A stretch of DNA of 64,000 nt from Cyanidioschyzon merolae (GCA_000091205.1 AP006492.2); one strand, 5' to 3'; positions 37,576 through 61,547 are shown, counted from the stretch's first letter. The notes: a model not told the origin generated them from the letters alone. Numbers and translations are program-made.

Positions 37576-38412
37576 TTAAACAATACGCTCCAGACCGCGT
37601 ATATACTCCATGGTGCGACTGACGGCTTCTTTCGCCAGCAGATATTGTGATGGTGCTTCCCTAATGTGATCTGAAGCGATGAAATGCACAGTCTCGTTTT
37701 GAACGACGTACTGCGTACAATCAAGCACACGTGCCAGCAGAGCGGGCACCTGTTCGACCGGCAAAGCTGCCATGCTCGCCAATTCTTCAAGCGTGACATG
37801 CGCATAGGCCTCCGCCCAACTCGTCACCATCTCCTGGATTGTCGTCTCCCGCAGAAGCTCGATAAAAGGCAACCACTCCGCACCTGCCTCAATGTGGAGG
37901 ATTTTCTGATAGCTGCCTTCCGTAAGCGCCTGCTCCACCTGAAAAGGAAAAAGCACGTATGGGTTCTGTTGCGGCTCTGTGGTAGGCAGCAGCTCCAACT
38001 CCATATGGTACTCTGCCAACCTGTTTTGTGCCAAGAGTCGCATCAGATTGAGTCCAACTAGGAGGTCGCGATGTGGCGACTGAATACCGGCTTGCCTGTC
38101 CAGCTCGTAGAGTGGCATTAGCTGCTGGATGTGACGCTCCATTGCCGCCCAGTCGCGTTCCATGACGGCGAGTCGCACACATAGTTCGTGAAACGTGCGC
38201 TCTGCCAGATGATCACCAACTCGGCGAAGCACCAGCTCTCTCTTTAGACTCGTGACCAGGTGATCGGCCTGCTGCTTCTCGGGCCCGCTGAGCGTACCAC
38301 GCTCCACCAAAACCTGCAAATCATGCAGGCTCGTAGTCACCGAAGCTGCTGCTGCTGCTGCTGCAGGTGAATCTGAGCCCGGCACGCCGTCCGTCATCGA
38401 TTCTGGTCTCAT
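37576..38412 (-). CDS. RPN12: 26S proteasome lid subunit Rpn12 (PSMD8), PCI/CSN8 family
   Basis: 278 aa. LLVGLNLMRLLAQNRLAEYHMELELLP, LTEGSYQKIL and the C-terminus ...EYIRGLERIV align closely with human PSMD8 ([26 protein letters not shown] ... LMEGSYNKVF ... EYARQLEMIV). Confidence 0.85.
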   Translation of the reverse strand: MRPESMTDGVPGSDSPAAAAAAASVTTSLHDLQVLVERGTLSGPEKQQADHLVTSLKRELVLRRVGDHLAERTFHELCVRLAVMERDWAAMERHIQQLMPLYELDRQAGIQSPHRDLLVGLNLMRLLAQNRLAEYHMELELLPTTEPQQNPYVLFPFQVEQALTEGSYQKILHIEAGAEWLPFIELLRETTIQEMVTSWAEAYAHVTLEELASMAALPVEQVPALLARVLDCTQYVVQNETVHFIASDHIREAPSQYLLAKEAVSRTMEYIRGLERIV

Positions 38413-39190: not shown

Positions 39191-40705
39191 TTGCAAAACA
39201 AGCAGAGTACACTCCCGCAACTACCAACTTGCGCGATACCAGCGCTCAAGAAACAAGCACGATCGTACTCGCAGGGACGTTTTCTGTTCTGTTTGTGTGC
39301 CGTGCAACTTTACAACGAAAAAAGCCACTGGTTCACAGCCATCAAACTGTGCCGTATGCTAGGAACAGATCAGCGCATAAATTCTGATACATTGCTGCGA
39401 CGTGCTCCCAGGTTTTACTGTGGAAGCGGGTTCGTGTTTGCGGCGCTGCCGCCGTGGCTGGAGCCACGGACTGCGTGCAAGCACCGTGCCAGGTCGCCGG
39501 TACCACTGCAACGGCATCCGCGGCTGTTCCAGCGCTGCGGTACCTCAGTAAGTCGCCACGCTTTAATTACGCTCCGGGCGAAGAATGAACGACCGTCACC
39601 TCCGTGGCAGCTCATTCTATCGTTCGCGGCGCTCGTGGTGTTTGGTGCCCCACTTGTGAAGCCACTCGTGGATACGCTTGCGACGCACGTTGCACCGGGT
39701 TCTCAGGTGGCGTTAAGGACGTCTAGTGCACTGAGTGAAGAGGAAATTGCTGAAAAACTGCGCGTCATTCCTGTTTTCTGTGTTACGGACCGCGAAGGTC
39801 GACCGATTCTCACAGAAGTTGGGTCGGCGTCGAACACCCCGGCTGGTGCAGCGGCCCAGGCCGAGCTGGACGAACCCGAAACCTTGAGTGGTGCTCTAGG
39901 CTTGCTGGATATCGACTCGCAACAGCGAGTTCAAAAGCGGAGAGCAGGGCCTGCCACGGCGCACCGCATCGGCAGCTTTTACCTGAGCTATGACGATGCC
40001 TCGCGTTTCCTAGAACAGCTCTCGGAACGAAGCGCACAAGACAAGCAGAATCTCATTCGGGATGCTCGTATTGTCGTTGTTCCCCTCGATGAGGCGCTTA
40101 GCTTCGTGACGCCACGCGAAGGTGGCCGTGGCAAAGTGCCAGACCCGTCCGATGAGTTTCACCTTGTACCAAGTGAGCAGAGCGTGCGTTTTGCGGAGCG
40201 GGTGCTCAAAGCAAACGGGGCCCTAGGGGTGAATGCGCGCATACGAGGCGTCCCTCTGTTTACCATCCGCGGCTTTGCACTGCAGCGAGTCGTCGAGAAG
40301 GATGCTGGGGCGGGTTCAGAAGCGACCCAAGTATCTGAGACCGCGAACCTGTCAACCGAACCTTTGTTGCTCACACCAGTTTTCTTCACCCTGGATGATG
40401 TGCAGTTCGCATGGGATCGGTTGCGTCAAGTGAGCAATAATCAAGGAACCGCGCTGCCGTCGAAACTTCCTCTCGATCGAGTTTACGTAACGGATCTGCG
40501 TACGGTTATACAGGGAATGCGGCAAGGCTCGAGTGCCCTGGAACTCACCGACGGTAGCGCCGACTACCATTCCGTGGTGTTCTTGCCTTCGCGCTCCGCC
40601 ATGCCCGGAACACGCACGGATGCGAGCGGTTCGCAGCGTACAGACGCTCAGCCCGTTCTAGAAACGAGGGCTACCACTGAGCGCCATGATGGAGCCGGGC
40701 GCTAG
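39191..40705 (+). CDS. Tic22-like protein (plastid intermembrane-space import component family); start codon uncertain
   Basis: Four Tic22-type repeats: LRVIPVFCVTDREGRPIL, GSFYLSYDDASRFLEQL, RGVPLFTIRGFAL, LLTPVFFTLDDVQFAWDRL (compare Tic22 V-P-V-F-t-v and P-V-Y-F-s-x-e-D). The N-terminal ~190 aa of the ORF is probably 5' UTR or targeting sequence. Confidence 0.4.
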   Translation: MQNKQSTLPQLPTCAIPALKKQARSYSQGRFLFCLCAVQLYNEKSHWFTAIKLCRMLGTDQRINSDTLLRRAPRFYCGSGFVFAALPPWLEPRTACKHRARSPVPLQRHPRLFQRCGTSVSRHALITLRAKNERPSPPWQLILSFAALVVFGAPLVKPLVDTLATHVAPGSQVALRTSSALSEEEIAEKLRVIPVFCVTDREGRPILTEVGSASNTPAGAAAQAELDEPETLSGALGLLDIDSQQRVQKRRAGPATAHRIGSFYLSYDDASRFLEQLSERSAQDKQNLIRDARIVVVPLDEALSFVTPREGGRGKVPDPSDEFHLVPSEQSVRFAERVLKANGALGVNARIRGVPLFTIRGFALQRVVEKDAGAGSEATQVSETANLSTEPLLLTPVFFTLDDVQFAWDRLRQVSNNQGTALPSKLPLDRVYVTDLRTVIQGMRQGSSALELTDGSADYHSVVFLPSRSAMPGTRTDASGSQRTDAQPVLETRATTERHDGAGR

Positions 40706-42497
40706 AACCGCCTCGCGTGCCGCACAGAGCATCGGGACGCTGGATGGAATGTACGTTTTGCGGACGGGTGCTCCGTCTTGAACTCATACAACCAACATGT
40801 GGAACCGTCGTTTATCTTGCATGAAAGACGCAGAGTCATCTCCGAGCAGGTCGCTGAGCGTGTCATGCTCCAGAAAAACAGACTAGCTGGGACACTCGAC
40901 GGGACGAGCGTACCAGTCCCTGAGCTGGAAACGCGATCGCATCTTGTTTTATACATGAACGCCAGCGGCGACATATGGCAAATGTGGAGACTGTCGTGGT
41001 TTCGACCGTCTACGCAGCAGCACGCTGTATACCATAGCGGCAGCTTGTACCCTATCTTGAGCCGGACGAAAACGTACGCGCAACAAACGTAAACATTCCA
41101 GGGGTGTGTACCATCCGGTGCACATGCTTTCGCACGGCTTGCACGGAGACGAGCCTTAGGCGCCAAAGTGCGCTATGGTGCCTTACGGTACGCTAGCAGG
41201 TGCTCAATAACAGGATAAATGTGCACGTGTCATCAAGAGGTTCCTCAAGCTCCGCGAAGGTCAGGCAATCTCCGCTCCACTCGGGGATCGCCTGCGACAA
41301 GAGCGCAGCTCGGAGGCGCACGCTTTTCAAGGCGAAGCGCCTCCGGCCGGCATTTACCAAACTCAAAGGTTGCATAGATGCCAGCGCAATCGAGGGGAAC
41401 GTGCTACCAAGCTGGACTTCACGGCAGTGCACGTGTTCGGCAGCAAAGGCAACCACGAGCACCCGTCCGCGAACTGGGCGAAAACACGAAGGCAAGTACG
41501 CTTTTCGAACAGAAACTCGGATGCTTGGATGATGCCGGCTCCGTACCAACGCTCCATCACGTGTGCGTCGCTGCGCGGTCGATGAGACACCTGTCCATGA
41601 AGGCATGGAGCACTTCATGCGCCAGCGAACGCCACGATACAGCGAGATGAAGCGCGCGATCATGCGCACGAACAAGACGATCCGATGAGATTTGCCCTTG
41701 CGACAATATGGGATAAATTGATAACGCAGACGCCACGATCTGATGAGATTTGCCCTTGGGACAATGATGTACAAGCATGACATCGCATGAACGCAAACGC
41801 AACTTTTGGATGCCTGATATTGTGAACGATACGGCCGTACCAAGCAGCAGCAGCAGCAACCATTGCAAGTGACCTCTGTACACCCGCAATGAGTACGCAA
41901 CAGCCGCCAGTGGCAAAGGAACAACGCACTGTTGGGTATCGGGACGCTCCGTGCAAGTCGCAGTGCGAACTCATATACAGCAACGACCGCTGTCGCCTCT
42001 GCTGCAGGCCGGATAGAGCGTCCGATTCCTGTGCTGTCGCATGACGCTGCAGCCGCGAACGCGCCTACATCAGAAAGCCATGGCGGTTTTATGGATTGCG
42101 CTTCAGTCCGGAGCGCAACCGCGCCTCCTGGACAGATCACAGAATCATCGCTGGTGCCGGCTCAGCGTGTCCTGCTCATGACAGTAGCAACGACCATGGA
42201 CTCACAAGAATACAACCCAGTGAGTGTATAGCGTCGTCAGCTAGCAATCAGTTCAACATTTGCTGCGGAAACAGCGCACTTCATAAAGAGATGACCAGCA
42301 AAAGCGGTGCGCACGCGCTCACAAACATCGCTTCATCCCGGCGTTTGGCGTACGCCCGTGCACACCCGTGCAACGCGCTGCGTAACGATCTCAGTTGTGC
42401 AGGAATCCCAACAGCTTACTCGCTATCCTGCGAGTCCGGCTCCTGAATCAACAACACACAACTCAAAAAAGCAGCACAGGACGCGTTTCGTGAATCC

Positions 42498-44363
42498 TCA
42501 CTTGCACGCCGCCATCATTTCACGCAACTCCGCTTCAGTGAGAAATCCACGCATCAAATTCGGAAGCGTACCAGCGTTCGCAAACGGCTTCAGCGACCAG
42601 TTATGGAGATCAAAGTACACCAGCTGGTTACCGCTCGATGAAATGGACTTGGCATCAGACGGATCTGGAGCAAGGCTCTCGACGCCTGGTCCCGATCGTG
42701 CAAACCACGTCTTGAGCTCCTTGTGATACCGCCAACCTCGATTGAACAACTCCAGTGCAGCATATACTTGTACCAAATCACGCGGATATCCGTAAAAGAT
42801 AAGGATTAACGTCTCCGTTGAAAAGCGTTTGAAATGCGCAGGTTTCAAGCTCACTGTGCATGCGCTGTAACAAGACGGCAGAGCCGCAAATGCATCGAGC
42901 GAGTTGCCCACAGTCTCATCTGTTCGGGTATCCTCCAATGGTGCACCATTTCGTGATAAATCGGGACCAAACGGAGACGAAAACGAAGGATACAACGGCT
43001 CCGCGCTGTTCAGATTCAGACCCAGGGCCGTCAGGTCTACCCCGTGCGCCAATAGCGACAGGTCCGCATTCTGCGAGCGAATCGTCGCCAAGAGTCCCAG
43101 CATGCCGTACGGTGAGCCCCAGGTGCCGTTCTCCGCACCTGCCGCCTGACCCGACGCAGTCCCCGAGCCGTGGGCCAAGTTCAAGAGATTCAGCGCCATG
43201 GACGTCGCGCTGGCCGCAGCGGTCCCAGCTGCAGAGAAGACGCCCGACCGAGCACCAGCTTCAGTGGAAAACTGGCCCATTCCTAGTCGTGCACTCGGAT
43301 TCGGCTCGGCATTGAGTCGCGTACTCCACTCTGGGGCATCGGAGCGTGATCCTGCCGGGCCCGAAGACGACGACGCCGACGACGTTGTTGTTGTTGTTGT
43401 TGTTGCAAGCGATGCCAGCGTCGGCAAGGATGGAGGCGTTGCCAGCGGTGCTGAGGGTAACGGCGGTGGCGCTGATGGCGTTGCTGGTGCTGGCCCTGCT
43501 GCGTACGGCGGCAGCGAAGTGGGCGCTGTCGATGATCCCGTGGCGGATGGTGCTCCAAGGAAGCCGACCGTCGATGTCGACGACGCCGGCGGTATCGACA
43601 TCGCCGCCAGAGCACCGGTACCCGAGGCTCCGTTCCCGGCACCTGCTCCAGTACCAGCAACGAAGGAGTTGGGCACTGCGCCAGCCGTCACGTTGCCACC
43701 TATGGTTCCCAAGGATGGGTTCAGTCGAGAATGGACACCGAGCGTGGCCGGGTTCTGGAGTTTTGATCCCAGCGCCGGAAAGTCTCGCGCAGTAAGCTCC
43801 ACCCGCTGCGACATCGAATACGGGCTCCCCAGAACCCGACCGTACCCCATCATTGCATTGCCAGCTCCCGAGTTGTTCGCTGACTCTCCAAGAGAAGCCT
43901 GCGACGTTGCACCCTGCCCATGATTCAGCATCATTCCCACACCAAGAGCCGGGAAATCCGTCAGGTCGAAAACTGCAGTCTGTTGGCCCATGTGTGACTC
44001 ACTTGACGCGGGCGGTGTTTGGCCCAGTGGCGGAAACAGAGGCGAGCCACTGGTCAGGAGTGCAGGCGACACCGTCAGACCAGCGCTCGTTGTTGCTGTT
44101 GTTGTTGTTGTTGCTGCTGCTGCTGAGGCGTTGAGCGGGCCGCTCCCAAACCCAGCGTTGGAGTCATTAGCAGGGCCAGCTGAAGCCGGCGGTGTGGTCG
44201 CTAACGCGCCGCTTGCTAGCGCAGACGGCCCGTGTAGCTGTTGTGCGAACGACTGGAAGCGCCCAAGAAGCGGCGGGCTCCATCCAGCGCTCCCCGAAGT
44301 CGTCAGACCCTGGCCTCCGCCAGCGCCAGCGTTCGTTGGCATAGCGATGTTACCAGCCCTCAC
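42498..44363 (-). CDS. NOT2: CCR4-NOT complex subunit NOT2 (CNOT2-like) with long low-complexity N-terminus
   Basis: 621 aa. The C-terminal NOT box LTALGLNLNSAEPLYPSFSSPF...FKRFSTETLILIFYGYPRDLVQVYAALELFNRGWRYHKELKTWFAR matches human CNOT2 LTTLGLNLNSPENLYPKFASPW...LLFYLYYMNGGDVLQLLAAVELFNRDWRYHKEERVWITR. Confidence 0.8.
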   Translation of the reverse strand: MRAGNIAMPTNAGAGGGQGLTTSGSAGWSPPLLGRFQSFAQQLHGPSALASGALATTPPASAGPANDSNAGFGSGPLNASAAAATTTTTATTSAGLTVSPALLTSGSPLFPPLGQTPPASSESHMGQQTAVFDLTDFPALGVGMMLNHGQGATSQASLGESANNSGAGNAMMGYGRVLGSPYSMSQRVELTARDFPALGSKLQNPATLGVHSRLNPSLGTIGGNVTAGAVPNSFVAGTGAGAGNGASGTGALAAMSIPPASSTSTVGFLGAPSATGSSTAPTSLPPYAAGPAPATPSAPPPLPSAPLATPPSLPTLASLATTTTTTTSSASSSSGPAGSRSDAPEWSTRLNAEPNPSARLGMGQFSTEAGARSGVFSAAGTAAASATSMALNLLNLAHGSGTASGQAAGAENGTWGSPYGMLGLLATIRSQNADLSLLAHGVDLTALGLNLNSAEPLYPSFSSPFGPDLSRNGAPLEDTRTDETVGNSLDAFAALPSCYSACTVSLKPAHFKRFSTETLILIFYGYPRDLVQVYAALELFNRGWRYHKELKTWFARSGPGVESLAPDPSDAKSISSSGNQLVYFDLHNWSLKPFANAGTLPNLMRGFLTEAELREMMAACK

Positions 44364-47023
44364 ACCAGTTCGCTTGGCCTTCGGCTAGGGGCGTCCAACA
44401 AACAAAACCGTTTGTAAGGTGCAAAGGTTACCACGACTATGAAACCAGGAGCGATACGCACACCGTAGCGCTGCTGTTGCGCTCGACAGCGTGTCCAGGT
44501 CGCTGGCCTCGAACAAACCCCGAGTACCTGCAGTGGCAACAACGCTGCGAAGTTGTGCAGAGCACTGTAGCTGCTGCGGACTCGAGTCCCAACGTTTCGT
44601 GGACGTTACCTTTTAGCTGACAGCGTCCCTGCTCACGTCCAGGGCAGGTCGAAACCAGGGTCAGTGAACGTGGGTGTTATACAGTCCAGTGTAGAAGCAG
44701 CGGTCTGCCGTGCGCTCTCAGGGCGCAAAAACAGCACCACTGCCCGCTAGCGCCAGTTCAACGCCTGGACGACCACTGTTCGCCGGGCGCCAAAAGCACT
44801 GTACCCAGGTGAGCGCTGCCGAACGGTACAGAAACCTGCGGATGAACGTTCGGAGACCGGAAGACCTAACAACTCTTCCAGTAAGCTGGATGCGTCGCGT
44901 GTCCACTGCAAGTGCCGGACGCAGCACACGCAGCAGGAGCGTTTCGCGGAAACAGCTCAAGTCGACTGCCGGTCGCTGTTGCTGTCGGGGAGAACTTGCC
45001 AGCTTTAAGTTTTTTTTTCGGTGAACCGGAGAAAACTTATGAGTCGTAACTATGTTTCCTTCCTGTAAAGATGGAGGCGGGGACGAACTGGAGCCGCAGC
45101 TGCCGCTGCACGCACTCAAGATCCCGGACTCGTGTACGCTACAGCTTGACAAGGCGGGCTTGGGCAAACGCGTCTCCAGAGACGCTCACTCCAGCAGCAT
45201 CAGTATCGAGCGGTCTAGAGCTTGCCTAGTTTCTCTTCGACGAAAGAAAGCGCCGGCGACTTGGTGTGCACGCGCTCATGGACGCTCCCAGAGCGATAAA
45301 GTGCGCTGCGTGTGCAGTGTTCCCGGCATCGAAACACCTTTTCACTTGATGTATCTGGAATGCAGCGATTCATGCAATTGCATCCGCATGTACCCCGAAT
45401 ACTGTTTCGGCATCCATATCAGACGATAATGGAACGAGTCCTTTGGGTCATTGGGAAATTCTAATTTGTTGGGTCTCTTTCCATTGTCATCAAAAGCAGC
45501 TTTTGCGAGCTGGTGCTGCAGCTACCTCCTTTTGCCTTTCATATCTCCGGCTTTCGAGTCGCCTATCTCTCCTATCCATGCAGCTCCATTGTTTTACCGG
45601 TCGAACGAGCTTGATGTCACCGTGAACCTCCGGATTTCGCATCTTCCGGCTGTAGTCCACGCTTCTGGTGGATTGGAGGATGTTGCAATCCTCATTTCGC
45701 TCGCCATTTTCAGTCTACGTTTATGTACAGCCTTGATACGCCCGTCGCAGCGGTGAAACTTGAAGATCATCAGTTGTTCGCACATATCTACAACACCTTC
45801 GACTCCTCTGCATGCTGCCCTGTCGAGTGGGACGCTTGCTGCATCCCTAGGTACATGCCTCTTGGCGAGTGAAGACGATTTTTTCAATATCCCTTTCCGT
45901 TTCGACGCCAAGCACCGTGCGCTAGAATCACGGGCTTCTTCTGGGTGACTCCCGCAGCGCGTACGTTGTCTGCCGCTTGGCCAAGCTCACGCTTTGCCTT
46001 TTCATGGACGAGTGGTGTAACGCGATGATGTGCACAGTCAAAAACGTTCTGTAAGGAGAATCCGCTCTGAATATATAGCGGAGAAATCTCGATCCGTATA
46101 CGCTAGCTTTACCCAAAGCAGTGACCCACGATTGACTGGAATCGATCTCTGCAATGACTCCAGTGCAATTCCGGGACCCTTGTCTGTGCCAGAAGAATAG
46201 CCAAGAGTCCTGGAAGCATATCCCCTATCAAGAATGATACTGAAGTAGACTTGGATTCCGTTGATAGGCGCCGAGCGAAGAGCACTTGTTTTTCAAATAC
46301 AATCGATGATTTGGCGTGCCATACTCATTGATGTTCAGAAACGAGCTCGTTCACAAGTCGTCCATGGACAACATCGAGCATCTTTCGTCGTCAGTCTAAC
46401 TTTGCGAGTTGCTGTGGCCATGAGCAGCCCAGAAACTGGAAGATGCAATCGCTGAAGAAAGCCTGATTTGCGCATGCTACACTAATGCAAAGCGGTAACG
46501 TGCGTAACCTTGAACGTATGAACTGGAAAGTGATAACGCTTCATTTACGAACCTCGAGTCGAGCGCGTCGCGATGCATCTTGATTCCGGTAACGTCCATA
46601 ACTTCAGCGGCAGCGCGTCGCATGCGGTATTCCGAAACAAAAACGATCAAGAAACCTGAAGCTACGCATGAAGCCCCAAACCCATCCAGCTGTACTTGTT
46701 CGTTCGAGGCTGCATATCTAGAAAAACGCCGTAAGAAATCGCAAGACCGGAAAGGATCCAACAGTGCACTGTTCCATTGTAATCTGACACGAGTCGAGAA
46801 GCGAGTAAGGTTCCAGGTTTTAGTACCGCGCAAGCAACACCATTCTCAATACGTTTGGCAAGACGTTGTTCGGCAGATCCTTCTCTCCCACAAGCGTACG
46901 AGTACTGGTTGCAACAACGGTACGCGAGTCGTTCTGCTGTGGTTGTCTTCTGACCTCGAAACTGCTCACTGGACCCGCCGCTCCGCTCCGTGCAAACCGC
47001 AAGAGGCGCGCGATCCACGAAAA

Positions 47024-48493
47024 ATGGCTTCGACATGCTGCTCCGCAACAGCAATCGACACAACGCAGATCGTCATTCTGGGCAGCGGGGGAGCAGCCAT
47101 GGCAGCAGCGATAACCGCTGCAGAGCGGGGTGCTCAAGTGCACGTGGTAGAGCGAGGTACCATAGGCGGCACGTGTGTGAACGTGGGCTGCATCCCGTCA
47201 AAACACCTCGTCCGATGCGGTCAACTGGAGCACTGGTGCGAACTGCACAAGCACCAAACCGTGTCCAACGCAGTGAACGGTTGTCCCTGTCCCGGTATGC
47301 TCGACGCCCCTAAACTGCGTACCGCTCGACAAGCGCTCGTAGAACAGCTTCGCTATCAAAAGTATGAGCGGGTGCTCGGTGAGAACCCCCGAATCACAAC
47401 TTGGCACGGAGAGGCGCGTTTTCACGATCCTCAGAGCGTCTGGGTACGAACCACTGCAGATGACGGCAGTCGTGTCGACACCCTGCTGCGCTTTGATCGT
47501 TGTCTGATTGCTGTGGGTGCTGCACCCTGCATACCGCCGATTGACGGACTCGCAGAGGTCCCTTTCTGGACGTCAACGGAAGCACTGGCGAGCGACCAGA
47601 TACCGCGGAGACTCGCGGTCATCGGGTCGTCTGCTGTAGCGCTCGAACTGGCCCAGGCTTACGCACGTCTGGGTAGTCGCGTCTGGATCCTCGCTCGCCA
47701 TGGACTATGCACGCGAACTGACCCGCTCGTTGGCGATACACTGGGTGCGGCTCTGGTAAGTGACGGACGCATTGAGATCCGCTGCCATACTCGGGTCGAG
47801 CGGGTCCGGTATCGGGACGGCCTGTTCACGATGACGCTGGACTCGCAGGAAACGAGCGTGGAGGTAGACGCTTTGCTGGTTGCGTGTGGGAGACGTCCGA
47901 ACACTGCCGCACTGCAGCTCGATGCAGCTGGTGTGCACTGGGATGCGGCCTCGGGCACTGTCCCAGTCAACGATAGGATGCAGACGAATGTACCAAACAT
48001 ATACGCAGCAGGTGACTGTACGAACATGCCGCAGCTGGTGTATGTGGCGGCTGCAGCTGGTACCCGTGCCGCAATCCAGATGACCGGCGGTGACGCCAAA
48101 CTGGATTTGTCGCTGGTGCCTTGGGTGATCTTTACGGATCCACAGGTGGCGGCTGTGGGTCTCACAGAGGCGGAGGCACATGCGCTTGGTCTCCAGACGC
48201 AGGTGCGCACGCTCCCGGTCACGAATGTGCCACGGAGCATCGTGCACGGCGAAAAGTACGGATTTTTGAAAGTCGTCGCGGATATAACGAGCAAGCGTAT
48301 CCTGGGGGCTCAGGCGGTGGCATCGGAAGCCAGCGACATGATTGCCACCGTCGCGGTTGCCATGCGCGGTGGTCTAACTGTCCCGGATCTGGCGGAGCTG
48401 TTGATACCATACCTCACCGCGAGCGAGGCAGTCAAGCTGGTTGCCCAGTCATTCACGCGTGATGTCCAGAAGCTGTCGTGCTGCGCTGGCTAG
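47024..48493 (+). CDS. merA: Mercuric reductase (MerA) core enzyme, bacterial type, lacking an NmerA metal-binding domain
   Basis: Class I pyridine-nucleotide disulfide oxidoreductase: VILGSGGAAMAAAI (FAD), redox-active GGTCVNVGCIPSK, second Rossmann AVIGSSAVALELA. The C-terminus ...FTRDVQKLSCCAG is near-identical to Tn501/Tn21 MerA ...DVKQLSCCAG (C-terminal Cys pair). The in-frame ORF extends upstream to 46580; Met at 47024 (MASTCC...) gives a MerA-core-sized protein of 490 aa. Stop is TAG. Confidence 0.85.
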   Translation: MASTCCSATAIDTTQIVILGSGGAAMAAAITAAERGAQVHVVERGTIGGTCVNVGCIPSKHLVRCGQLEHWCELHKHQTVSNAVNGCPCPGMLDAPKLRTARQALVEQLRYQKYERVLGENPRITTWHGEARFHDPQSVWVRTTADDGSRVDTLLRFDRCLIAVGAAPCIPPIDGLAEVPFWTSTEALASDQIPRRLAVIGSSAVALELAQAYARLGSRVWILARHGLCTRTDPLVGDTLGAALVSDGRIEIRCHTRVERVRYRDGLFTMTLDSQETSVEVDALLVACGRRPNTAALQLDAAGVHWDAASGTVPVNDRMQTNVPNIYAAGDCTNMPQLVYVAAAAGTRAAIQMTGGDAKLDLSLVPWVIFTDPQVAAVGLTEAEAHALGLQTQVRTLPVTNVPRSIVHGEKYGFLKVVADITSKRILGAQAVASEASDMIATVAVAMRGGLTVPDLAELLIPYLTASEAVKLVAQSFTRDVQKLSCCAG

Positions 48494-49183: not shown

Positions 49184-50383
49184 TCAAGGAAGAAGCCGAC
49201 GCTCGCCGCGCACCACGCCGTGGTCTGTAAATATCCGAATACCGTGCGTTTCGCTGATTTCAAGCACCTCGCAAGCGCCACCATACGCGGCACTCATGCC
49301 CGTGTCGACACGCCACACGCGACCCCGACACGCTCCATTGATGACGACTTGCGGTGTATGGCCTACAACCATGCGTCGTACACCAGCGCGGCGCAACGTC
49401 TCCTCGAGCTCGCGACAAGCGTCCGAGTCAGAACGCAAATGCGGCGCCGAGTATGTTCGCATCCATACCGGGGAGCGCGAGCCCTTCAGGAACTCTGGCT
49501 TAGATGAGACGTCTGCTGCTGCTGCTGCTGCTGCTGCTGTGGAGCCAAAGCGCGCAACCCCGACTCTGGGGACACTTTCGGTGATGCGCGGTATCGTGGC
49601 CTTCCAGGGATTCATCGGCAGCCGTGTCGACCATGCCGCTGCCGCACGTCGCTCCATCCAGGCACGAGTCTCGGCGTTGAGCCGCTCGAGGCCATACGCC
49701 ACGTGATCCGGACGCAGGCCACCGTGCACAAACAACGTGTCGCCAATGATCAGCACGAGCTGTCCGCGTTCCGCCAAAAGTCGGGCGGTTGGGCACCCCG
49801 GAGCAAGCGCCATCGCGCGGGCACGCTGCTCTCGGGGTAGCGCCTTGACGCGCTGACGCAGCACCGGCGGCAACTCTCGGTAGGCCTTCTCGAGGGCGCG
49901 ACCGGCGAGCTCCCAGTCCCGCCGACGGAACTCGGCAAAACCACCAGGCGTCACGTATCGAAAGTCCAGGTCTACATTCATGACCTCGTGATTTCCGAGC
50001 AGTCGATAGACGGCGCCGCCACGCTCACGCGCTTGCCTGTCGAGGGTGTCGAGAAAGTGCAAGACTGCCCGCTCAGCGTCGCCACGATCGAAGACGTCGC
50101 CGACTTGCACCACGACGGCATCCCCACCGATCCACTCACCATTTTCATTGATCACATTCGCCAGCGATAAACACTTTCGCAACGAAGCCAAGTCACCGTG
50201 AACGTCACCGAGCGCCAGGAGCCTGCGTACGGCGGGGCGGCGTACGCTGGGGCCAGCTGCCGTCACCCGCGCGAACGCTGGGCGCACTTTCCACAACGAA
50301 GCGAGCACATCTGCTCGCAAACGGTGCAAGGCATCTTCACAAGTTCGCTTCCAGTCCACCAGGGTAAGTCCGGCAGATGCCAT
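49184..50383 (-). CDS. Shewanella-like protein phosphatase (SLP/Shelph), calcineurin-like metallophosphoesterase of the PPP family
   Basis: 399 aa. LALGDVHGDL (GDxHG), VGDVFDRGDAE (GDxxDRG), LLGNHEVMN (GNHE). It includes an in-frame (GCA/GCT)n Ala run at about 49510-49540. Confidence 0.7.
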   Translation of the reverse strand: MASAGLTLVDWKRTCEDALHRLRADVLASLWKVRPAFARVTAAGPSVRRPAVRRLLALGDVHGDLASLRKCLSLANVINENGEWIGGDAVVVQVGDVFDRGDAERAVLHFLDTLDRQARERGGAVYRLLGNHEVMNVDLDFRYVTPGGFAEFRRRDWELAGRALEKAYRELPPVLRQRVKALPREQRARAMALAPGCPTARLLAERGQLVLIIGDTLFVHGGLRPDHVAYGLERLNAETRAWMERRAAAAWSTRLPMNPWKATIPRITESVPRVGVARFGSTAAAAAAAADVSSKPEFLKGSRSPVWMRTYSAPHLRSDSDACRELEETLRRAGVRRMVVGHTPQVVINGACRGRVWRVDTGMSAAYGGACEVLEISETHGIRIFTDHGVVRGERRLLP

Positions 50384-51627: not shown

Positions 51628-53568
51628 ATGGATGCATTGCATACCGCAGGCGGTTGCTCCAGCAGGAACGTTCGTCGCAGCGTGCCAGCACAGCGCACTA
51701 GGAGGTCGTGTTTCTTTTCCTCTCGACGACAAGGTCATATGCACTCCGCTTTACAACCAGCCGCACAGCCGTGTTTTATCCTGGCGCCCGGTTTGACCAG
51801 TAACCGAAATGGGTTGACGCGTGCTTCGTGCGCGCACGAGCTGCGGCGAGCGCCTTGCGTCTGGCTCGCAAGGCGTCGCTTTCCCCGGCAAACAGCAGGC
51901 CCACAGCACGATGCAAGTTGTCTGGTGCCAAGCTTTCATCGACAGGAACTCCATCGCCAACGAGTTGTTGCGCTATCGCGCCGTCGTACGAAGCGCACTG
52001 CCCCACTAGACATAGTGGCTGAGCGAAGCGACTCGGGCAACGCCCAGGCCGTTTCCGGAACCCAGTTTCAGCAGGAAGCGACTCCGACAGGCGCTCCCGG
52101 CAAGGTCTATGACCGTGTCGTGTGCAAGTTTGGTGGCTCTTCTGTCGCCGACGCGGAACGTATGCGTGAGGTAGCGCGACTTGTGCGGCGTCAGATTGAG
52201 CTGTCCCGCCAGTACCCAGTGGTGGTGCTGTCGGCGATGGGCTCGACCACAAACGACCTCATTGCCGCCGGAGACGCCGCACTTTACGAAGGTATCGTTG
52301 ACTCGACAGTGGTCCGAAACCGCGCCTACGCGGTCTGTGATGCTCTCGGCCTGGACCGGGAGGCGCTCGTGGACCCCCTGCTCATGCAACTGGACCAGCT
52401 GCTCATGGGTGTCAAGTTCATTCGGGAGCTCTCGCCGCGAACCCGAGACTACCTGGTCTCGTTTGGCGAGCGGCTTTCGGTTCGCATTTTCGCAGCGCAT
52501 CTGCTGTACAATGAAGGACTACCTGCACGCGCCTTCGATGCGTTTGACGTCGGCTTTCGAACGGACTCGAATTTTCAGAATGCGGAGATCCTCGAAGAGA
52601 CCTACGACCTTATCCGAAGCTTTTTCGAGCGGGTTGTAAGCAACCAGACCCTAGCGGTGATCACCGGTTTTATTGCGAAGGACAATGAGGGTCACGTTAC
52701 CACTCTGGGGCGCGGAGGCTCCGACTTGACTGCCACCACGCTGGGTGCAGCGCTGGGCGCCACCGAAGTCCAAGTCTGGAAGGACGTCGACGGTATCATG
52801 ACAACGGATCCGCGTCTAGTGCCGAATGCGATACCCGTGGCTGAAATGTCTTTCGAAGAAGCCGCCGAGCTCGCTTACTTTGGCGCCAAGGTTCTGCATC
52901 CGGTGGCGATGCAACCGGCGTTGCGCTTCAATATACCGGTGCGCGTGAAGAACTCGTACAATCCGGAAGCACCGGGCACTGTGATTCTTCGACGGGAGTC
53001 CGCGACCATGGATCGCCCTGTCACAGCGCTCAGCGTGAAACGCGGAGTCCAGTTGGTGGATATTGTATCCACGCGTATGGTCGGTGCATACGGTTTTCTG
53101 GCGCGGGTGTTCGCGTGCTTCGCGACCCACCAGTTAAGCGTGGACGTTATCGCTACATCGGAAGTGAGCCTATCGCTGACACTGGACGCAAACGCCTGCG
53201 ATATGACGCGGCAGCAGCGCATCATTAAGGAACTGCAACAGATCGCACAGGTGAGCTTCAGCTCCGGACGCGCCATCATTAGCATCATCAGCAACGTTCG
53301 GCGGAGTAGCGAAATTCTGGCCAGAGCGATGAAAGTGCTCCACGAGCAGAACATCGAGGTACAAATGATATCCCAGGGAGCTTCCAAATTCAATATTAGC
53401 TTGGTAGTCCACAACGACGAAGCTATCACTGCAGTGCGCGCCTTGCACGATGAGTTCTTCCATTGCTCGCCGTCGGCAAGCAACGGAACGTCGACGTCGG
53501 CGACGGCAGCAGCAGCTGCTGCAGCAGCAGCGAACGCAGACGGCGTCCGCGTCGCGGGTGCCGCTTGA
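51628..53568 (+). CDS. Aspartate kinase (monofunctional, two C-terminal ACT domains), with long Arg/Ser-rich N-terminal extension (transit-peptide-like); true start may be downstream
   Basis: The core begins VVCKFGGSSVADAERM ... VVVLSAMGSTTNDL ... and ends with ACT-like LSVKRGVQLVDIVSTRMVGAYGFLARVF ... ISQGASKFNISLVV. Stop is TGA. Confidence 0.85.
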   Translation: MDALHTAGGCSSRNVRRSVPAQRTRRSCFFSSRRQGHMHSALQPAAQPCFILAPGLTSNRNGLTRASCAHELRRAPCVWLARRRFPRQTAGPQHDASCLVPSFHRQELHRQRVVALSRRRTKRTAPLDIVAERSDSGNAQAVSGTQFQQEATPTGAPGKVYDRVVCKFGGSSVADAERMREVARLVRRQIELSRQYPVVVLSAMGSTTNDLIAAGDAALYEGIVDSTVVRNRAYAVCDALGLDREALVDPLLMQLDQLLMGVKFIRELSPRTRDYLVSFGERLSVRIFAAHLLYNEGLPARAFDAFDVGFRTDSNFQNAEILEETYDLIRSFFERVVSNQTLAVITGFIAKDNEGHVTTLGRGGSDLTATTLGAALGATEVQVWKDVDGIMTTDPRLVPNAIPVAEMSFEEAAELAYFGAKVLHPVAMQPALRFNIPVRVKNSYNPEAPGTVILRRESATMDRPVTALSVKRGVQLVDIVSTRMVGAYGFLARVFACFATHQLSVDVIATSEVSLSLTLDANACDMTRQQRIIKELQQIAQVSFSSGRAIISIISNVRRSSEILARAMKVLHEQNIEVQMISQGASKFNISLVVHNDEAITAVRALHDEFFHCSPSASNGTSTSATAAAAAAAAANADGVRVAGAA

Positions 53569-53879: not shown

Positions 53880-56800
53880 TCAAGCTGAATCGGCACAGGG
53901 CGCGAATTCGCTGCTCCTGATCTGCGTCGTACAGGCGTCGACAGTGCTCTCGGTCGCATCTGATAGCAGCACTGGGCGGCTGGGGCGCATACCTCGACGA
54001 TCGCGCATGCGAGCGGCGAGCCCATTGGCGGGCGCACGTGCGGTCGGCGCTGCAAGGGCATCCACGCCACGAGCGTCTTTCGGGGCGGGGGGTGTCGTCA
54101 ACATCAGAGGCGACGACGACGATGAAGATGATGACGGCGAGGACGCAAACCATGAGGTTGGCTGCGTTCGCTCGTCCGCTACGGTACCGGTCGGTGGTTG
54201 GCCAAGCGACTGTCCAGCAGTCGACGGTACGGTCAAGTGTCGGTCTGGAGACGCACTGCTTCGGGGCGGCGCTCGATGCATTGCTAATGATTCCCTCGCC
54301 TCCGAGACCGCGGCTGGGCGACCCTTACAACGACCAATCAGCGCCTCGATAAGGAGCAACGGGCGCTCAGCCAGCCGTTTGCGCCAAGCAGAGGCAAGCG
54401 TCCTGCTCAGCTGCACCATATCGTCGAGCGCCGACGCTGCATCCCGGCACGCGGACAGGCGCAAACCGCTCTGGGATCGCTGGTGGTCGGCGCGCCTCTC
54501 GAATGCTGCGCTACAGACGAGCAGCGCATGCCAACTGAACATATGCGATGAAACTGCTGCAGTAGCGGGCTCAGCGTCGCCAAAAGCAGCTGCAGCGGTC
54601 CAGCACTGAGCCAAGAGGTCCAGCGCGCGCAGCCAGCCGCTGGTTTGATACAACGGCGCCGGCCAAGTCTGCACCAGCACCTCGTAGAGCGGTAGCAAAA
54701 GGCAGTGCCCTAGTCGTGGCAATCCGTAGATGCACCGCGCGAACTCGTGATTCTCTGCAGGTGTACATGCGTCCAAATCGTGATGCGGCCGAGGCAGCAC
54801 ACACTTACCGACGAATGCGAAAAGCCACAACAGACTGAACGCTCGATCCAGGTACAGGCGCGAGCACCGACGCCCATCCAAGCGCGGGATCGCGCGCGCC
54901 ACGGTGCATACTGCGGTGCGATTGGCACAGCAGAAAGCAGCGAGACGGCGTAGGCCGTCCACTTCAGCGAGTAGCGCCCGCCATTGAAGGAACACGAATC
55001 GCATGATGGTCTCGGGCGGCACCAGGTAGGCTACCGCCAGAACAGGAGGCTCGGACTCGGTACCGAAGCTGTCCTGCTCCCAGGCATCCTGGTGCTCCTC
55101 TGCTGCCGCCGAGCGTCGCCGACATCCCCCCGAGTGCACGCGAATGCAGGCACAGAGAATCTGGAGAGCAGCTTGAAGTGGCACATCGCCCAGCAAAGCG
55201 TCCATCAATGCCTGTTTCCATTTGCTGTTGGGCGGTGCATGCTGAGTAAACCGCTCACCGGTGCTCGCTTCTGGCAAAGTCGGCCTCTGATCCCGATAGA
55301 AACGCTGGGTTAATTCGTGATGCAACTTGTCAGCGATATCGCTGTCGTGGACCATCTCGGACAGGCACAAAGACGGCCATGCACTGAGGTCGTCCGGCAC
55401 ACGGCCATATCCGTGCGCCTCCAGCAGCAGCAAGACTGCGCGGCTTCGGGCGCACCAGGTTGGCTCAGCGACCTGCGCGGCCTGTTCCCAAAAGTGAAAC
55501 TGCATGATCGCAGACGCGAGTTCAAGAAAAGCTGGTAACTCTGACCAGGGCGCTGCACTTGGGTTGCGCACAGCTCGCACGAGCTGACGCAGCCCATACT
55601 GCCCTAACTCGTAGAGCGCGAGTCCGGCTTGGCGGACCCACAGCGCCCACGCGGCAGCCGCCTGCGGGCTGCTGTCGACGGTGGTGCCCGCGTGCCTCAC
55701 CAGCGGGCCGAGTCCGGGTTCGGTTTCCGTTGCCGACAGGGCGGCGAGGCGGGTCCAGCTTGGCGGTAACGTTCCTACTCGCTTCGAAGGGTTGTAAAAG
55801 ACGGAGGCGTTCTCGGGCTGCAGCGTCCCCAGGTCGCTGCGGCGCGCTCGCTCGCCGTGCCAGTCGCCTGCTCGACCGCATCGCCTCAGCGCCTGCTGGA
55901 AACAGGGTGCGTCTTGCTGCAGTTCAGACCAGAGGTCATCGGGGTCGAGCGCGACGCGCTTCCGACTCGTGCCAGTGCCGCGAATACCGTCTGAAGGGGA
56001 GCATTTTGGAACGACAATCCAGGTACTAGGACGCTGTGCCGCCCAGCGAGCGGTGCGCATTAAGCCGTGTCTGTTCGCCCTCTGGTCACGTTCACGATCG
56101 AGCCTCGCCTGCAGTGGTTGCCAGCCATCAAGGAAGGCCTTACGCGCATGATCAACTGGCGTACCGCACTCCGTGAAAACATGCTCAGCAAAATGTTCTA
56201 CTGGAAAGAAACGCACCCATGCCGCATGGTAAATCTCGACTGCAGCATTCATCACAGAATCCGTCATGCTGCACGTAGTCGTGGCCGTTGCACTTTCCAG
56301 GTGCGGCGCCTGCATGACAACCGCATGAATAAGGCGGAAAAGATCGAGCTCCTCGGGACACATCAGCTGCAGAAGCAGTTCCTGGGCGATCGACTGCGCT
56401 TCCCGATGCGTTGCCAGTCGAGCTTCCCGATCGAAAGCCGCGGGAATGTGCTTTTTCGACCAAGGCGTCGGCCGATCAAGGCATGCTGGTTCGCGGATAA
56501 ATGCCGAGAAGAGGAGCAGGCAGAGCTCCACATCGGACCACGTGGCCGGCAACGCACGAACGGCACTAACGAACATATCCGCGATCCAGTCCAGCGCAGA
56601 GAAGGGAGCATCTTCGCCGGCACTTCGTTGATGCGTGCGGTGGCGCACCAGAAGCGCTCCAAGCTGCAGCACTGCTGCGTGGATCTCATCGAGCGCTTCA
56701 CGAAAAGCAAGCGCTGCTACCACAAGAGGCGACGAATTCGGTATGGACGCGTCGGCGAAATCCGTCTCCGAGGCTCGGCTCGGTCGCTGTTGCGGTGTTT

Positions 56801-57587
56801 GCTGGAGTACGTTCGCGATCTGGCGTATAAGCGATGCTGGCGGAGGCAGGATGACTGCAACAATAAGTTTCATGAAGCTCCTGAGCAGATGCATCAGAGC
56901 TTCCAGACGCGCATGACACGCAGCTGCGGCTGAACTTGTCATGTCCATGTCTGGGAAGCTTCGCGTCGGTGGCGGTAGATACGCAAAGCTCTCAAGGGCG
57001 ACGCCCAGCACACCAGTACGAAGAAGGCCGCGGCGCGCAGCCAGCGGCGCCAGACCGGCCTCCGCCACCACCCCGTCAGCGTCGACGTACCAGTCCAGCG
57101 TTGGAACGGGCGGCGCTCCATCGGTATCGACCTCACCACCGTAGGAGGGATTTAGAAACTCATCCCATTCACCGAGGAACGCGAGCAGGTCTTGGACCAG
57201 GCTCGAGAGCGCTCCCAGATCCACGTCCTGGCTCCCGGCCTGGGTTATTAACAGACACGGGCTCGCGTGTTCCACCGGAACGCCCGAAGCGTCCCAGCTG
57301 CCAGGTGGTGCAGTCCCCAAAGCCGGCAAACTCTCGTTGCTGCCAGCACCAGTGGCGGTCGCGCCGGCGTCGCGCGAGTTCGCAGCCTGTACCTGGACGA
57401 GAACCCTCAGACCTCGCACAATTTCGGAGGTCGTGCACGAGAGCGCCTCGGCTGCTTCTCTGGGTAGCAACGCATCCTCGGGTGCTGCCTCGGTAGCACG
57501 ACGTCGCATCTGTACAGTGCCAAAAGCGCTCCGTGAGGGGTACGTACCAACGCGTTCAGCAGTGCACGCACCAGCACCCAAGCACAC
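53880..57587 (-). CDS. Large hypothetical protein (1235 aa), predominantly alpha-helical, no family recognised
   Basis: A continuous 3.7-kb ORF in DNA with a standard genetic code is very unlikely by chance. The C-terminal region is Ser/Pro/Arg-rich. It overlaps smaller opposite-strand ORFs that I regard as artefacts. Confidence 0.5.
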   Translation of the reverse strand: MCLGAGACTAERVGTYPSRSAFGTVQMRRRATEAAPEDALLPREAAEALSCTTSEIVRGLRVLVQVQAANSRDAGATATGAGSNESLPALGTAPPGSWDASGVPVEHASPCLLITQAGSQDVDLGALSSLVQDLLAFLGEWDEFLNPSYGGEVDTDGAPPVPTLDWYVDADGVVAEAGLAPLAARRGLLRTGVLGVALESFAYLPPPTRSFPDMDMTSSAAAACHARLEALMHLLRSFMKLIVAVILPPPASLIRQIANVLQQTPQQRPSRASETDFADASIPNSSPLVVAALAFREALDEIHAAVLQLGALLVRHRTHQRSAGEDAPFSALDWIADMFVSAVRALPATWSDVELCLLLFSAFIREPACLDRPTPWSKKHIPAAFDREARLATHREAQSIAQELLLQLMCPEELDLFRLIHAVVMQAPHLESATATTTCSMTDSVMNAAVEIYHAAWVRFFPVEHFAEHVFTECGTPVDHARKAFLDGWQPLQARLDRERDQRANRHGLMRTARWAAQRPSTWIVVPKCSPSDGIRGTGTSRKRVALDPDDLWSELQQDAPCFQQALRRCGRAGDWHGERARRSDLGTLQPENASVFYNPSKRVGTLPPSWTRLAALSATETEPGLGPLVRHAGTTVDSSPQAAAAWALWVRQAGLALYELGQYGLRQLVRAVRNPSAAPWSELPAFLELASAIMQFHFWEQAAQVAEPTWCARSRAVLLLLEAHGYGRVPDDLSAWPSLCLSEMVHDSDIADKLHHELTQRFYRDQRPTLPEASTGERFTQHAPPNSKWKQALMDALLGDVPLQAALQILCACIRVHSGGCRRRSAAAEEHQDAWEQDSFGTESEPPVLAVAYLVPPETIMRFVFLQWRALLAEVDGLRRLAAFCCANRTAVCTVARAIPRLDGRRCSRLYLDRAFSLLWLFAFVGKCVLPRPHHDLDACTPAENHEFARCIYGLPRLGHCLLLPLYEVLVQTWPAPLYQTSGWLRALDLLAQCWTAAAAFGDAEPATAAVSSHMFSWHALLVCSAAFERRADHQRSQSGLRLSACRDAASALDDMVQLSRTLASAWRKRLAERPLLLIEALIGRCKGRPAAVSEARESLAMHRAPPRSSASPDRHLTVPSTAGQSLGQPPTGTVADERTQPTSWFASSPSSSSSSSSPLMLTTPPAPKDARGVDALAAPTARAPANGLAARMRDRRGMRPSRPVLLSDATESTVDACTTQIRSSEFAPCADSA

Positions 57588-59336: not shown

Positions 59337-60306
59337 TTACAGAGCAACCTCGGAAGCCAATGAAACAGTATTCACGCTCAAGCTACCAGCAGAGGGCAAT
59401 GCCGTGTTCGCGGGAAGATACCCCCCGACCTGCAACGGGATCGGTAGCGTCACCAAACGCAGCGGGTTGCGGCCCTGGTTTGAGTCGTCCTCAGAGGCTC
59501 TTTGCCCGGTATCTGACACTCGTACCAGGAAGTGGATGCTCAGAGTCCATCGCACCTGCACAACGCGAGTCGCAAAACTAACCGGAGTATCTTCCTCAGA
59601 CGGAATCCGTGGCGTCCAGTGCCACCTACAAAGGCCTGCACAAGGCTCGGCGCGCTCTGCGTACCTCCGCCGATGGCACAGGGTCGCACGCTTGCGCCTC
59701 TTAGGAGGCACTCGTGCGCATTTTTCGAGGCTGCTTTTCGAGAAATCATTTGCACATTCAGGATGCAGGATTTCCAGTGCGTCCAGCGTTCCTCGAATGT
59801 AAACACAGCTTGAAGTCGCCACGCTCAAGTCAATAGACACAGGCACCAGCTCTCCGAGCACGAATCCACGGCGCTGTAAGTGTACCGTGGCGATCCGACC
59901 CAGCCCGGTCGCCTCGACGCGTGCTATAAAAGGCATCCATACAGATTCGAGTTGGTCCAGCGGTGCTGTCGTAGGCGAGACGCTCCCGCTCCGTAGACCA
60001 CTGGCTTGCGTCGTACCATCCACAACCGGTGATGTACCCGAGTTCGTGCCGTCAGCCGCATGCGATCGACTTGCGATTCCGCTTTTCCCCGGCAACGTGT
60101 CCAGTATTGTCGAGTCGTCCCATTCGCTCGGCGTCGTTACCGGGTAGGCTGTCAGTCGACTGTTTGAGGTCGCGGACAGGATAAATTCAAGGTTGTTGGA
60201 GATCTCCAAAGCCACCTGGAAAGCCTTCAGCTCCATGCGGAGCGGCGCATCGGCATTTCCCGCTGCGTGCTCCTGTGGCGGCTCGCCTCGTGTAGAGACT
60301 TGTTCC

Positions 60307-60337
<31 letters not shown>

Positions 60338-61547
60338 GCAGGAACTCGGGCATAGCAGGCGAGCGTGGCACAGATGCCGACAATGTCAGGAGCGACGGCG
60401 AGGAGATACGGCGCTCCGACCAGGTAGGCGACATCTGCGGTAACGGTGGTGGCGATGCCGAGCCCGTGGAGCTCCCCGCGGCACGAGCCCCCGCTGCAGA
60501 GGCCGGTCTGATCACTTCTGCCATCATCCTATCCGGTCTCGTAACTGCAGCGCGCGACACTGCATCCAAGCGTACGCGCAGGACCTCGTTTGGATCCTGT
60601 AGTGGAGGCATCCCGTCGGCTCGCGACGCATCGCGTTCGTGATCACGTAGCGCCGCCACGGGAGCAGCAGCAGCAGCAGCAGTAGCAGCAGACATAGCAT
60701 CCGGCGCGGAGAGTACCGGTACCTTTGCCATTCGAGAGCTAATCGGAGGATGAATGCGGAACCGCAGGTGGAGCTTTACTGGCGCAGAGCCAGTTCGCTG
60801 GGCAACCACAGCGACGCCATACTCGTACCGTACATAAGTGCCGTCGAACGAGGGTGGTATCATCGACGGCAGGCATCCACGCACCAGGAACGCCAACAGT
60901 TTGTCACGCTCCAGACGAAGCTTCCTGGCGACACAACAGGCTCGACTCGCAAACACCAGTCCGTGATGCGCTGGAAGCTCAGAGTGCTGACTGCCCTGCG
61001 CCGAGCGCACCGGGTAAGCGTTCGCTTCAAGCAGGTCCCAGAGGGCAGCGAGCCAAGGCATCGCTTCCGCTGGTACCGCATCCTCTGGTCCGTCCAAGAG
61101 GTCCGGGGCCAGCTCTTCGCCTTCCCAGTCCCAGAAAGTGGTAGCGAAGCGTTTGGTCCGCTCCGCCTCAACTAGACCTGGAGCGGTTGACGGTTCGTGT
61201 TCGCCGTTCGCTTTTGCTTGCCCTGTTACTACAGCGGCAGTTGCAGGGCGCCGATGAGCCTCTGGCTTGGTCCAGCGAGCATCGCTTCGCCAGGCGCCAG
61301 CCACAGCACAAGCCAGAAACTCTAGCTCGTGTTCTGGGACGGGAACTTGGCGAGCCGTGCCAGTCGGCTCGTTCCCTGTCGTGTCGAGTACCAGCACGAG
61401 GCAGAATAGCGAACCAGGTTCGAGGTTCTGCGGTGCAATCCTAGCGTGAAGCCGCATGCTTTTTCGGAGGATCGCAGCACTGCGCTCTGCAGGAATGCCG
61501 CCACAGACTGCTGTAGCAGCCACGAAAACGATCGGCCCCCGGAACAC
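59337..61547 (-). CDS. Hypothetical protein (736 aa), no family recognised
   Basis: Long uninterrupted ORF with an (Ala)n run near the C-terminal third. Opposite-strand ORFs 59188-59802 and 60193-60642 are probably artefacts of GC-rich sequence. Confidence 0.45.

Follow-up and report, generated by a model that had tools for sequence, protein, structure and literature searches.

A mercuric reductase gene of probable bacterial origin in the red alga Cyanidioschyzon merolae encodes a short Cys-Cys tail in the position of NmerA

Mercuric reductase (MerA) is set apart from its paralogues by a vicinal cysteine pair at the C terminus, which carries Hg(II) into the active site of the partner subunit. 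The N-terminal NmerA domain (an HMA domain of ~70 residues with the motif GMTCxxC) is accessory, and membership in the MerA family does not depend on it. Two tyrosines of the Tn501 enzyme, Tyr194 and Tyr535, are established in the MerA literature as Hg ligands. NmerA is also missing from many bacterial and all archaeal MerAs (PMC4500099). The algal gene considered here was reported as a horizontal transfer in the Cyanidiales (OG0002305; Rossoni 2019, PMC6629376), and a later study found merA to be bacterial in origin, with separate acquisitions in the Galdieriales and the Cyanidiales (Cho 2023, PMC9812998). Cyanidium carries five subtelomeric merA copies, and other Cyanidiales have one non-subtelomeric copy (PMC9812998). 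The gene of C. merolae, a red alga of hot springs, is therefore already annotated and its bacterial acquisition already published, and it makes a clean textbook example of prokaryote-to-eukaryote transfer that gives heavy-metal tolerance to an extremophile.

We analysed the gene within a window of 64,000 nucleotides of C. merolae DNA, the whole stretch under study, whose features are collected in Table 1. An open reading frame spans 46580..48493 on the plus strand, and the ATG at 47024 opens a product of 489 amino acids with the N terminus MASTCCSAT; the stop codon occupies 48491-48493, and the C-terminal KLSCCAG comprises residues 483-489. This product is identical to XP_005534772.1/BAM80165.1, 'mercuric reductase [Cyanidioschyzon merolae 10D]', from an 839,707-bp record, and the public annotation uses the same start codon. 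On the comparisons set out below, the coding sequence is very probably the single-copy nuclear merA, predicted to encode a homodimeric FAD/NADPH mercury(II) reductase of the Tn501 (Proteobacteria-type) lineage that would have been acquired by the ancestor of the Cyanidiales from a bacterium and inherited vertically since, with a mechanism that we infer from its relatives.

Table 1 Features of the merA locus and its neighbours, in coordinates of the window
Feature	Coordinates	Strand	Basis or remark
merA coding sequence, 489 codons plus stop, single exon	47024..48493	+	Exact match to annotated protein
Cys5-Cys6 codons in the short N-terminal tail, at the place of NmerA	47036..47041	+	Alignment of Cyanidiales orthologues
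Redox-active disulfide motif GGTCVNVGCIPSK (aa 48-60)	47165..47203	+	Residue-by-residue alignment to 1zk7
Cyanidiales-specific His/Cys-rich segment QLEHWCELHKHQTVSNAVNGCPCPGML (aa 66-92)	47219..47299	+	Alignments A1 and A2
KLSCCAG C-terminal tail	48470..48490	+	Alignment to 1zk7 and 4k8d
148-codon open stretch in frame with merA, containing SSCTCS	46580..47023	+	Read as non-coding 5' flank (promoter or 5'UTR)
Oxidosqualene (cycloartenol-type) cyclase	24764-27220	-	
PSMD8/Rpn12	37576-38412	-	
Tic22	39191-40705		
ORF without Pfam match	41193-42140		
NOT2	42498-44363	-	
Metallophosphoesterase	49184-50383	-	
Aspartate kinase	51628-53568		
Rgp1	59337-61547	-	

The original prediction, made from the DNA sequence, had described an unmistakable MerA core that keeps the C-terminal cysteine pair and lacks NmerA, and each of these points was borne out. 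Pfam searches of the 489-residue product returned Pyr_redox_2 (6e-58) and Pyr_redox_dim (3e-30), and the protein exceeded the cutoffs of two NCBIfam models, the MerA equivalog TIGR02053 (mercury(II) reductase, EC 1.16.1.1; 506.5 bits, cutoff 454.45) and PRK13748 (602.4, cutoff 600). Scores for the NCBIfam paralogue families (lipoamide dehydrogenase, glutathione reductase, RclA and others) fell far under their own cutoffs, ruling out a lipoamide dehydrogenase or a glutathione reductase. The closest solved structure was the Tn501 MerA core (1zk7, E=6e-155), and an AF2 model built from a 36-sequence alignment (mean pLDDT 83, pTM 0.81) matched 1zk7, 4k7z and 4k8d in Foldseek with TM scores of 0.90/0.94. 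The class I pyridine nucleotide-disulfide oxidoreductase fold is present, with FAD and NAD(P)H Rossmann domains and a dimerisation domain. Pfam found no match to the NmerA/HMA family (PF00403) in the 489-residue product, the match to PRK13748 begins only at profile position 95, and the Rossmann strand already begins at residue 15. A transit or signal peptide would not fit ahead of it, so the protein probably resides in the cytosol.

Residue-by-residue alignment placed every catalytic position of the Tn501 enzyme in the algal protein (chain numbering differs from Tn501 numbering by an offset of 94, as the titles of PDB entries 4k7z and 4k8d show). Cys51 and Cys56, within GGTCVNVGC, correspond to Tn501 Cys136 and Cys141 (1zk7 chain positions 42 and 47), and Cys486 and Cys487 of the KLSCCAG tail to Cys558 and Cys559 (464 and 465). 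Tyr114 (in KYE) and Tyr463 (in PYLT) align with Tyr194 and Tyr535 (100 and 441, respectively). All six residues are invariant across the 36-sequence alignment. From this conservation and the known Tn501 mechanism, a catalytic cycle for the C. merolae enzyme can be proposed, in which the flexible Cys486/Cys487 pair of one subunit would take up an Hg(II)-thiolate and deliver the metal to Cys51/Cys56, the redox-active pair next to the other subunit's FAD, where Tyr114 and Tyr463 would serve as further ligands. NADPH, acting through FADH-, would then reduce Hg(II) to volatile Hg(0), which would diffuse out of the cell. Hg(II) reductase activity, a cytosolic location and induction by Hg are accordingly what we would expect of the C. 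merolae enzyme by inference from its relatives.

Beyond the shared catalytic residues, the alignments revealed a set of positions particular to the algae. The algal clade invariably has H70, W71, C72, H75, C87, C89, C229 and C254, none of which is shared by bacterial MerA. The first six of them lie in the His/Cys-rich segment listed in Table 1, within which residues 79-91 were modelled with pLDDT <50, so that C87 and C89 fall in a low-confidence inserted loop.

These residues raise the question of whether the protein is a MerA-derived enzyme with a shifted function, for example one acting on another metal or disulfide in a manner comparable to the RclA Cu(II) reductase, with the extra cysteines and histidines serving the new role. 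Seven algal-invariant Cys/His residues absent in bacteria (H70, C72, H75, C87, C89, C229 and C254) would fit such a change, as would the lack of any other mer gene in cyanidiophycean genomes, where merA has no companions alongside (PMC9812998), and the existence of related flavoprotein disulfide reductases with other substrates (in NCBIfam, RclA and a hypothiocyanous acid reductase also named 'MerA'). However, all Hg(II) ligands are kept, including both Cys pairs and both tyrosines, and the protein scores above the MerA equivalog cutoff and far under the cutoffs for RclA and other paralogous families. The habitat is Hg-rich, Cyanidium has expanded merA to five copies, and between-species Ka/Ks for merA is low (0.10) (PMC9812998). 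We therefore regard a change of substrate as unlikely and retain the reading of the protein as a mercury(II) reductase.

A second alternative concerns the start of the protein. The original prediction had pointed out an in-frame open stretch of about 148 codons upstream of the ATG, reaching 46580 and containing the Cys-rich SSCTCS, and had left open whether it encodes a targeting or metal-binding extension. The stretch is present as described, and with its C-x-C and an in-frame ATG at 46622 it could in principle yield a 637-residue long form, or a product starting at 46622, with a targeting or Cys-rich metal-binding extension. Several lines of evidence speak against such an extension. First, the upstream stretch is interrupted by two in-frame stops (TCG>TAG, inside SSCTCS and destroying it, and CAG>TAG) in L007, a metagenomic contig of a strain that is 99% identical, whereas the MerA frame of this contig is intact from the ATG onward. 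Second, the orthologous loci of two related algae also carry upstream stops, three codons 5' of the orthologous ATG in contig L006 and ~75 codons 5' in contig L003, and the upstream translations of the window, L003 and L006 share no similarity; blastn and tblastx picked up similarity to these contigs from ~47065 onward and none over 44.33-47.06 kb of the window. All orthologues, including the annotated GenBank models, begin at the equivalent methionine (M-x3-CC). Third, the upstream stretch has a codon score of -0.004 and a GC3 of 0.51, both under every one of the 14 host genes tested, and gave no match in Pfam. The long isoform is rejected on the L007 stops, the orthologue stops and the non-coding codon score, and we consider it very unlikely. 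By these comparisons the translation start is the ATG at 47024 and the 148 codons upstream are not coding; since the non-coding frame nevertheless contains an in-frame ATG at 46622, transcription most likely starts downstream of 46622.

The original prediction had also proposed that the gene was acquired horizontally from bacteria, with phylogeny as the check. In a search of 5.8 billion proteins, the closest match was the C. merolae cluster itself, including near-identical (99%) metagenome variants, followed by Cyanidiococcus (70%), Cyanidium caldarium (69%, five paralogues) and the metagenomic protein P0004 (67%). After the Cyanidiales, identity dropped to 52-56% for hundreds of bacterial MerAs, and no eukaryote other than Cyanidiales was found among the 120 matches listed. 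A library of 1.84 billion representatives gave the same picture, with the algal clade forming one cluster under a single representative, directly followed by bacterial MerA clusters. In neighbour-joining trees (Kimura-corrected distances, 200 bootstraps), Cyanidiales monophyly was supported at 100%. A focused tree grouped the Cyanidiales with a Tn501-like, Proteobacteria-dominated cluster, against more distant MerA clusters, at 99%, placing them as sister to almost all of that cluster in 129 of the 200 replicates and, in 70, to a small part of it. In a broad tree of 174 sequences, support for the placement of the algal clade was 0.18-0.47, and a single bacterial donor was resolved in neither tree. 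The grouping with bacterial MerA agrees with both the proposed horizontal origin and the published account.

The same results bear on the possibility that merA is an ancient flavoprotein, inherited vertically in eukaryotes or derived from the cyanobacterial ancestor of the plastid. Host-like codon usage and conserved synteny (see below) do show that the gene is old, as such a history would have it. Yet the eukaryotic matches listed were confined to the Cyanidiales in the one library and to the lone algal representative in the other, merA is missing from mesophilic red algae and other Archaeplastida in a published survey (PMC9812998), and the clade sits with the Tn501-type cluster at 99%. A vertical or plastid origin is rejected on the restriction to Cyanidiales and the 99% grouping, and appears extremely improbable beside acquisition from a bacterium.

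The neighbourhood of merA is eukaryotic. The original prediction had named NOT2, Rpn12 and a cycloartenol synthase as clearly eukaryotic neighbours, and we recovered NOT2, PSMD8/Rpn12 and an oxidosqualene cyclase, together with Tic22, aspartate kinase and Rgp1. The order Tic22-NOT2-merA-metallophosphoesterase-aspartate kinase is kept, in the same orientation, on two independent contigs of related algae. One, L003, is a 40-kb contig from a JGI metagenome and encodes P0004, a MerA with 67% identity; the other, L006, is an 8.8-kb contig from Logan, and its MerA, P0002, has 70% identity and falls in a cluster with Cyanidiococcus yangmingshanensis KAK4533158.1. A bacterial mer operon links merA to merR and transport genes (merT/P/C). 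Here, the large ORFs that we scanned across the window were eukaryotic housekeeping genes or had no Pfam match, with no mer-family gene among them; scans with Rfam (40-52 kb) and for tRNAs gave no matches, and neither tblastx nor blastn detected a conserved element in the 2.7-kb spacer between NOT2 and merA.

Base composition and codon usage, which the original prediction had suggested comparing with neighbouring genes, placed merA among the host genes. Its GC content is 0.60 and its GC3 0.63, with a codon-usage log-odds score of 0.198 that falls inside the 0.067-0.215 spanned by 14 host genes under leave-one-out scoring, whereas the merA of a bacterial relative (P0114, in contig L001) has a GC3 of 0.82. 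As both GC3 and codon score are inside the host range, merA is old and fully ameliorated. Synteny and codon usage together provide independent evidence that the transfer took place before the Cyanidiales genera diverged. Bacterial contamination or a chimeric misassembly, which might be suspected from the ~55% identity to many bacterial MerAs and a C terminus nearly identical to that of transposon-borne MerA, and which had already been judged unlikely, is refuted by the synteny on two independent related-alga contigs and has next to no chance of being correct given the eukaryotic genes adjoining on both sides, a GC3 of 0.63 rather than 0.82, bacterial identities of at most ~56% among the matches listed and the lack of mer operon genes in the large ORFs scanned.

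Starting at the annotated methionine, the enzyme carries only a 13-residue tail in front of its core. Met1, Cys5 and Cys6 are the sole invariant positions of this tail across four Cyanidiales orthologues (M-x3-CC), and residues 1-11 are predicted to be disordered (AF2, pLDDT <50). The Cys-Cys at residues 5-6 is not mentioned in the original prediction. An M-x(1-4)-CC tail also occurs in bacterial MerAs without NmerA, across several different MerA lineages. It was present in 9 of the 58 short-tailed representatives with a MerA signature in a 50%-identity library; P0168 (MSTCC...) and the Omnitrophota MAG protein P0161 are among these nine, and the bacterial P0114 (MDDCC...) is encoded within a merR-merC-merA operon. 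Three further representatives with the tail lay outside the motif filter: P0217 and P0237, which have the MerA-type C-terminal Cys pair, and P0166, a fusion protein with a different C terminus. In the literature searched, an open-access subset that covers part of the field, we found nothing specific describing an N-terminal Cys-Cys tail or NmerA-less classes.

The conservation of the tail in the algae and its recurrence in bacterial NmerA-less lineages suggest that it could be a minimal arm for handing off Hg(II). We tentatively propose, as a possibility with the odds somewhat against it, that Cys5-Cys6 may functionally replace NmerA in minimal form, acting as a flexible dithiol arm that would strip Hg(II) from cellular thiols and pass it to the C-terminal Cys pair, and that it may have been inherited from a bacterial 'CC-tail' class of MerA. 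The His/Cys segment of the Cyanidiales may provide a further site, for metal handling or for stability, that suits a eukaryotic cytosol in which MerT and MerP are lacking. If functional, the tail would refine the view of how Hg(II) is delivered to MerA cores without NmerA, and could guide the design of minimal MerAs for bioremediation in eukaryotic hosts.

Among described systems, the algal protein is most readily compared with the Tn501 MerA core of Pseudomonas aeruginosa (1zk7, 4k7z and 4k8d), to which it is 53-54% identical (TM 0.90/0.94). The two have in common the GGTCVNVGC disulfide, the C-terminal ...LSCCAG pair, the Hg-ligand tyrosines and an R-x5-R motif on the NADPH side. Unlike Tn501 MerA, the algal enzyme has neither an NmerA domain nor a linker, and carries the 13-residue tail with Cys5-Cys6 instead. 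It further differs in a 5-residue insertion together with the His/Cys-rich segment (aa 66-92), a 4-residue insertion near residue 145 and the extra conserved C229 and C254, and its gene is nuclear and eukaryotic, without merR, merT or merP. The MerA of Galdieria (Galdieriales) is likewise a bacterially derived enzyme of an extremophilic red alga (PMC5398495, PMC9812998); it was absent from the closest matches here, and has been reported as paraphyletic with the Cyanidiales gene, pointing to an independent acquisition (PMC9812998).

The bacterial MerAs with a Cys-Cys tail (P0114, P0168 and P0161) resemble the algal protein along their length, with M-x(1-4)-CC, ~8-20 residues, the Rossmann strand, the MerA core and the C-terminal Cys pair, as in the algae. 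They are embedded in operons where the context is known, and are scattered over several lineages. P0114 is the only one of them inside the Tn501-like cluster, and no specific sister tie between it and the algae was resolved. The other Cyanidiales MerAs (KAK4533158.1, Cyanidium caldarium KAK4536540.1 with its four paralogues, and P0004) are 67-70% identical to the C. merolae protein and have the same architecture, although the insert in C. merolae is longer by five residues (QTVSNAVNG). They share with it the N-terminal Cys-Cys and the clade-specific Cys/His residues, and in L003 and L006 the flanking genes are the same.

All Cyanidiales MerAs carry a short N-terminal tail of the form M-x(1-4)-Cys-Cys, represented in C. 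merolae by Cys5-Cys6. The same tail is borne by MerAs from several bacterial lineages that, like the algal protein, lack the N-terminal HMA metal-binding domain (NmerA), including P0114, encoded in a merR-merC-merA operon, and P0153, P0159, P0161, P0167, P0168, P0171, P0177, P0236, P0217 and P0237. Those short-tailed Cys-Cys representatives that our filter had flagged as lacking the MerA motif signature all proved to be MerA-like as well. We found no account of this tail in the open-access subset of the literature searched. In two other bacterial MerAs, P0050 and P0051 (479 aa), NmerA is represented by its metal-binding motif GMTCESCGG alone, which is fused straight onto the catalytic core (MTQLRPTGMTCESCGG-LHVAVIGSGG); their N-termini look like an NmerA cut down to its CxxC loop.

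A second set of residues, H70, W71, C72, H75, C87, C89, C229 and C254, is invariant across the Cyanidiales MerA clade and missing from bacterial MerAs. The inserted loop that carries C87-x-C89 has a pLDDT <50 in the predicted structure of the C. merolae protein. These Cyanidiales-specific His/Cys residues could form an extra metal site or a stabilizing feature.

Table. Positions of features in and around merA and of other ORFs in the window.
Feature	Location	Strand	Description
NOT2-merA spacer	window 44364-47023		2.7 kb
Cys5-Cys6 of C. merolae MerA	window 47036-47041		short N-terminal Cys-Cys tail
His/Cys segment of C. merolae MerA	window 47219-47299		aa 66-92; further invariant residues: Cys229, Cys254
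P0114 (bacterial MerA)	L001 6001-7437		Cys-Cys tail example
1141-aa ORF	window 10586-14011	-	Kelch repeats and Trefoil domains
315-aa ORF	window 41193-42140	-	no Pfam match at E<=1e-4
1235-aa ORF	window 53880-57587	-	no Pfam match at E<=1e-4

In the merA tree (neighbour-joining; Cyanidiales sequences C. merolae, P0002, P0003 and P0004), Cyanidium, Cyanidiococcus and the metagenomic Cyanidiales protein P0004 grouped together with C. merolae outside (100% bootstrap). This outside position could stem from an accelerated rate of evolution in C. merolae or from the tree being rooted on a long branch of bacterial sequences.

Upstream of merA, the NOT2-merA spacer contained no conserved ORF, gave no match in Rfam and tRNA scans, and showed no similarity to the orthologous spacers of the related-algae contigs L003 and L006; its GC content (0.49–0.52) is below that of the flanking genes. 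Elsewhere in the window, tblastx matches to L006 at 54273-54720 fall within the 1235-aa ORF, and at least part of this ORF is therefore kept in L006. The 1141-aa ORF is a member of the 'K+T' family, for which subtelomeric duplication has been described in Cyanidium (Cho et al. 2023, PMC9812998).
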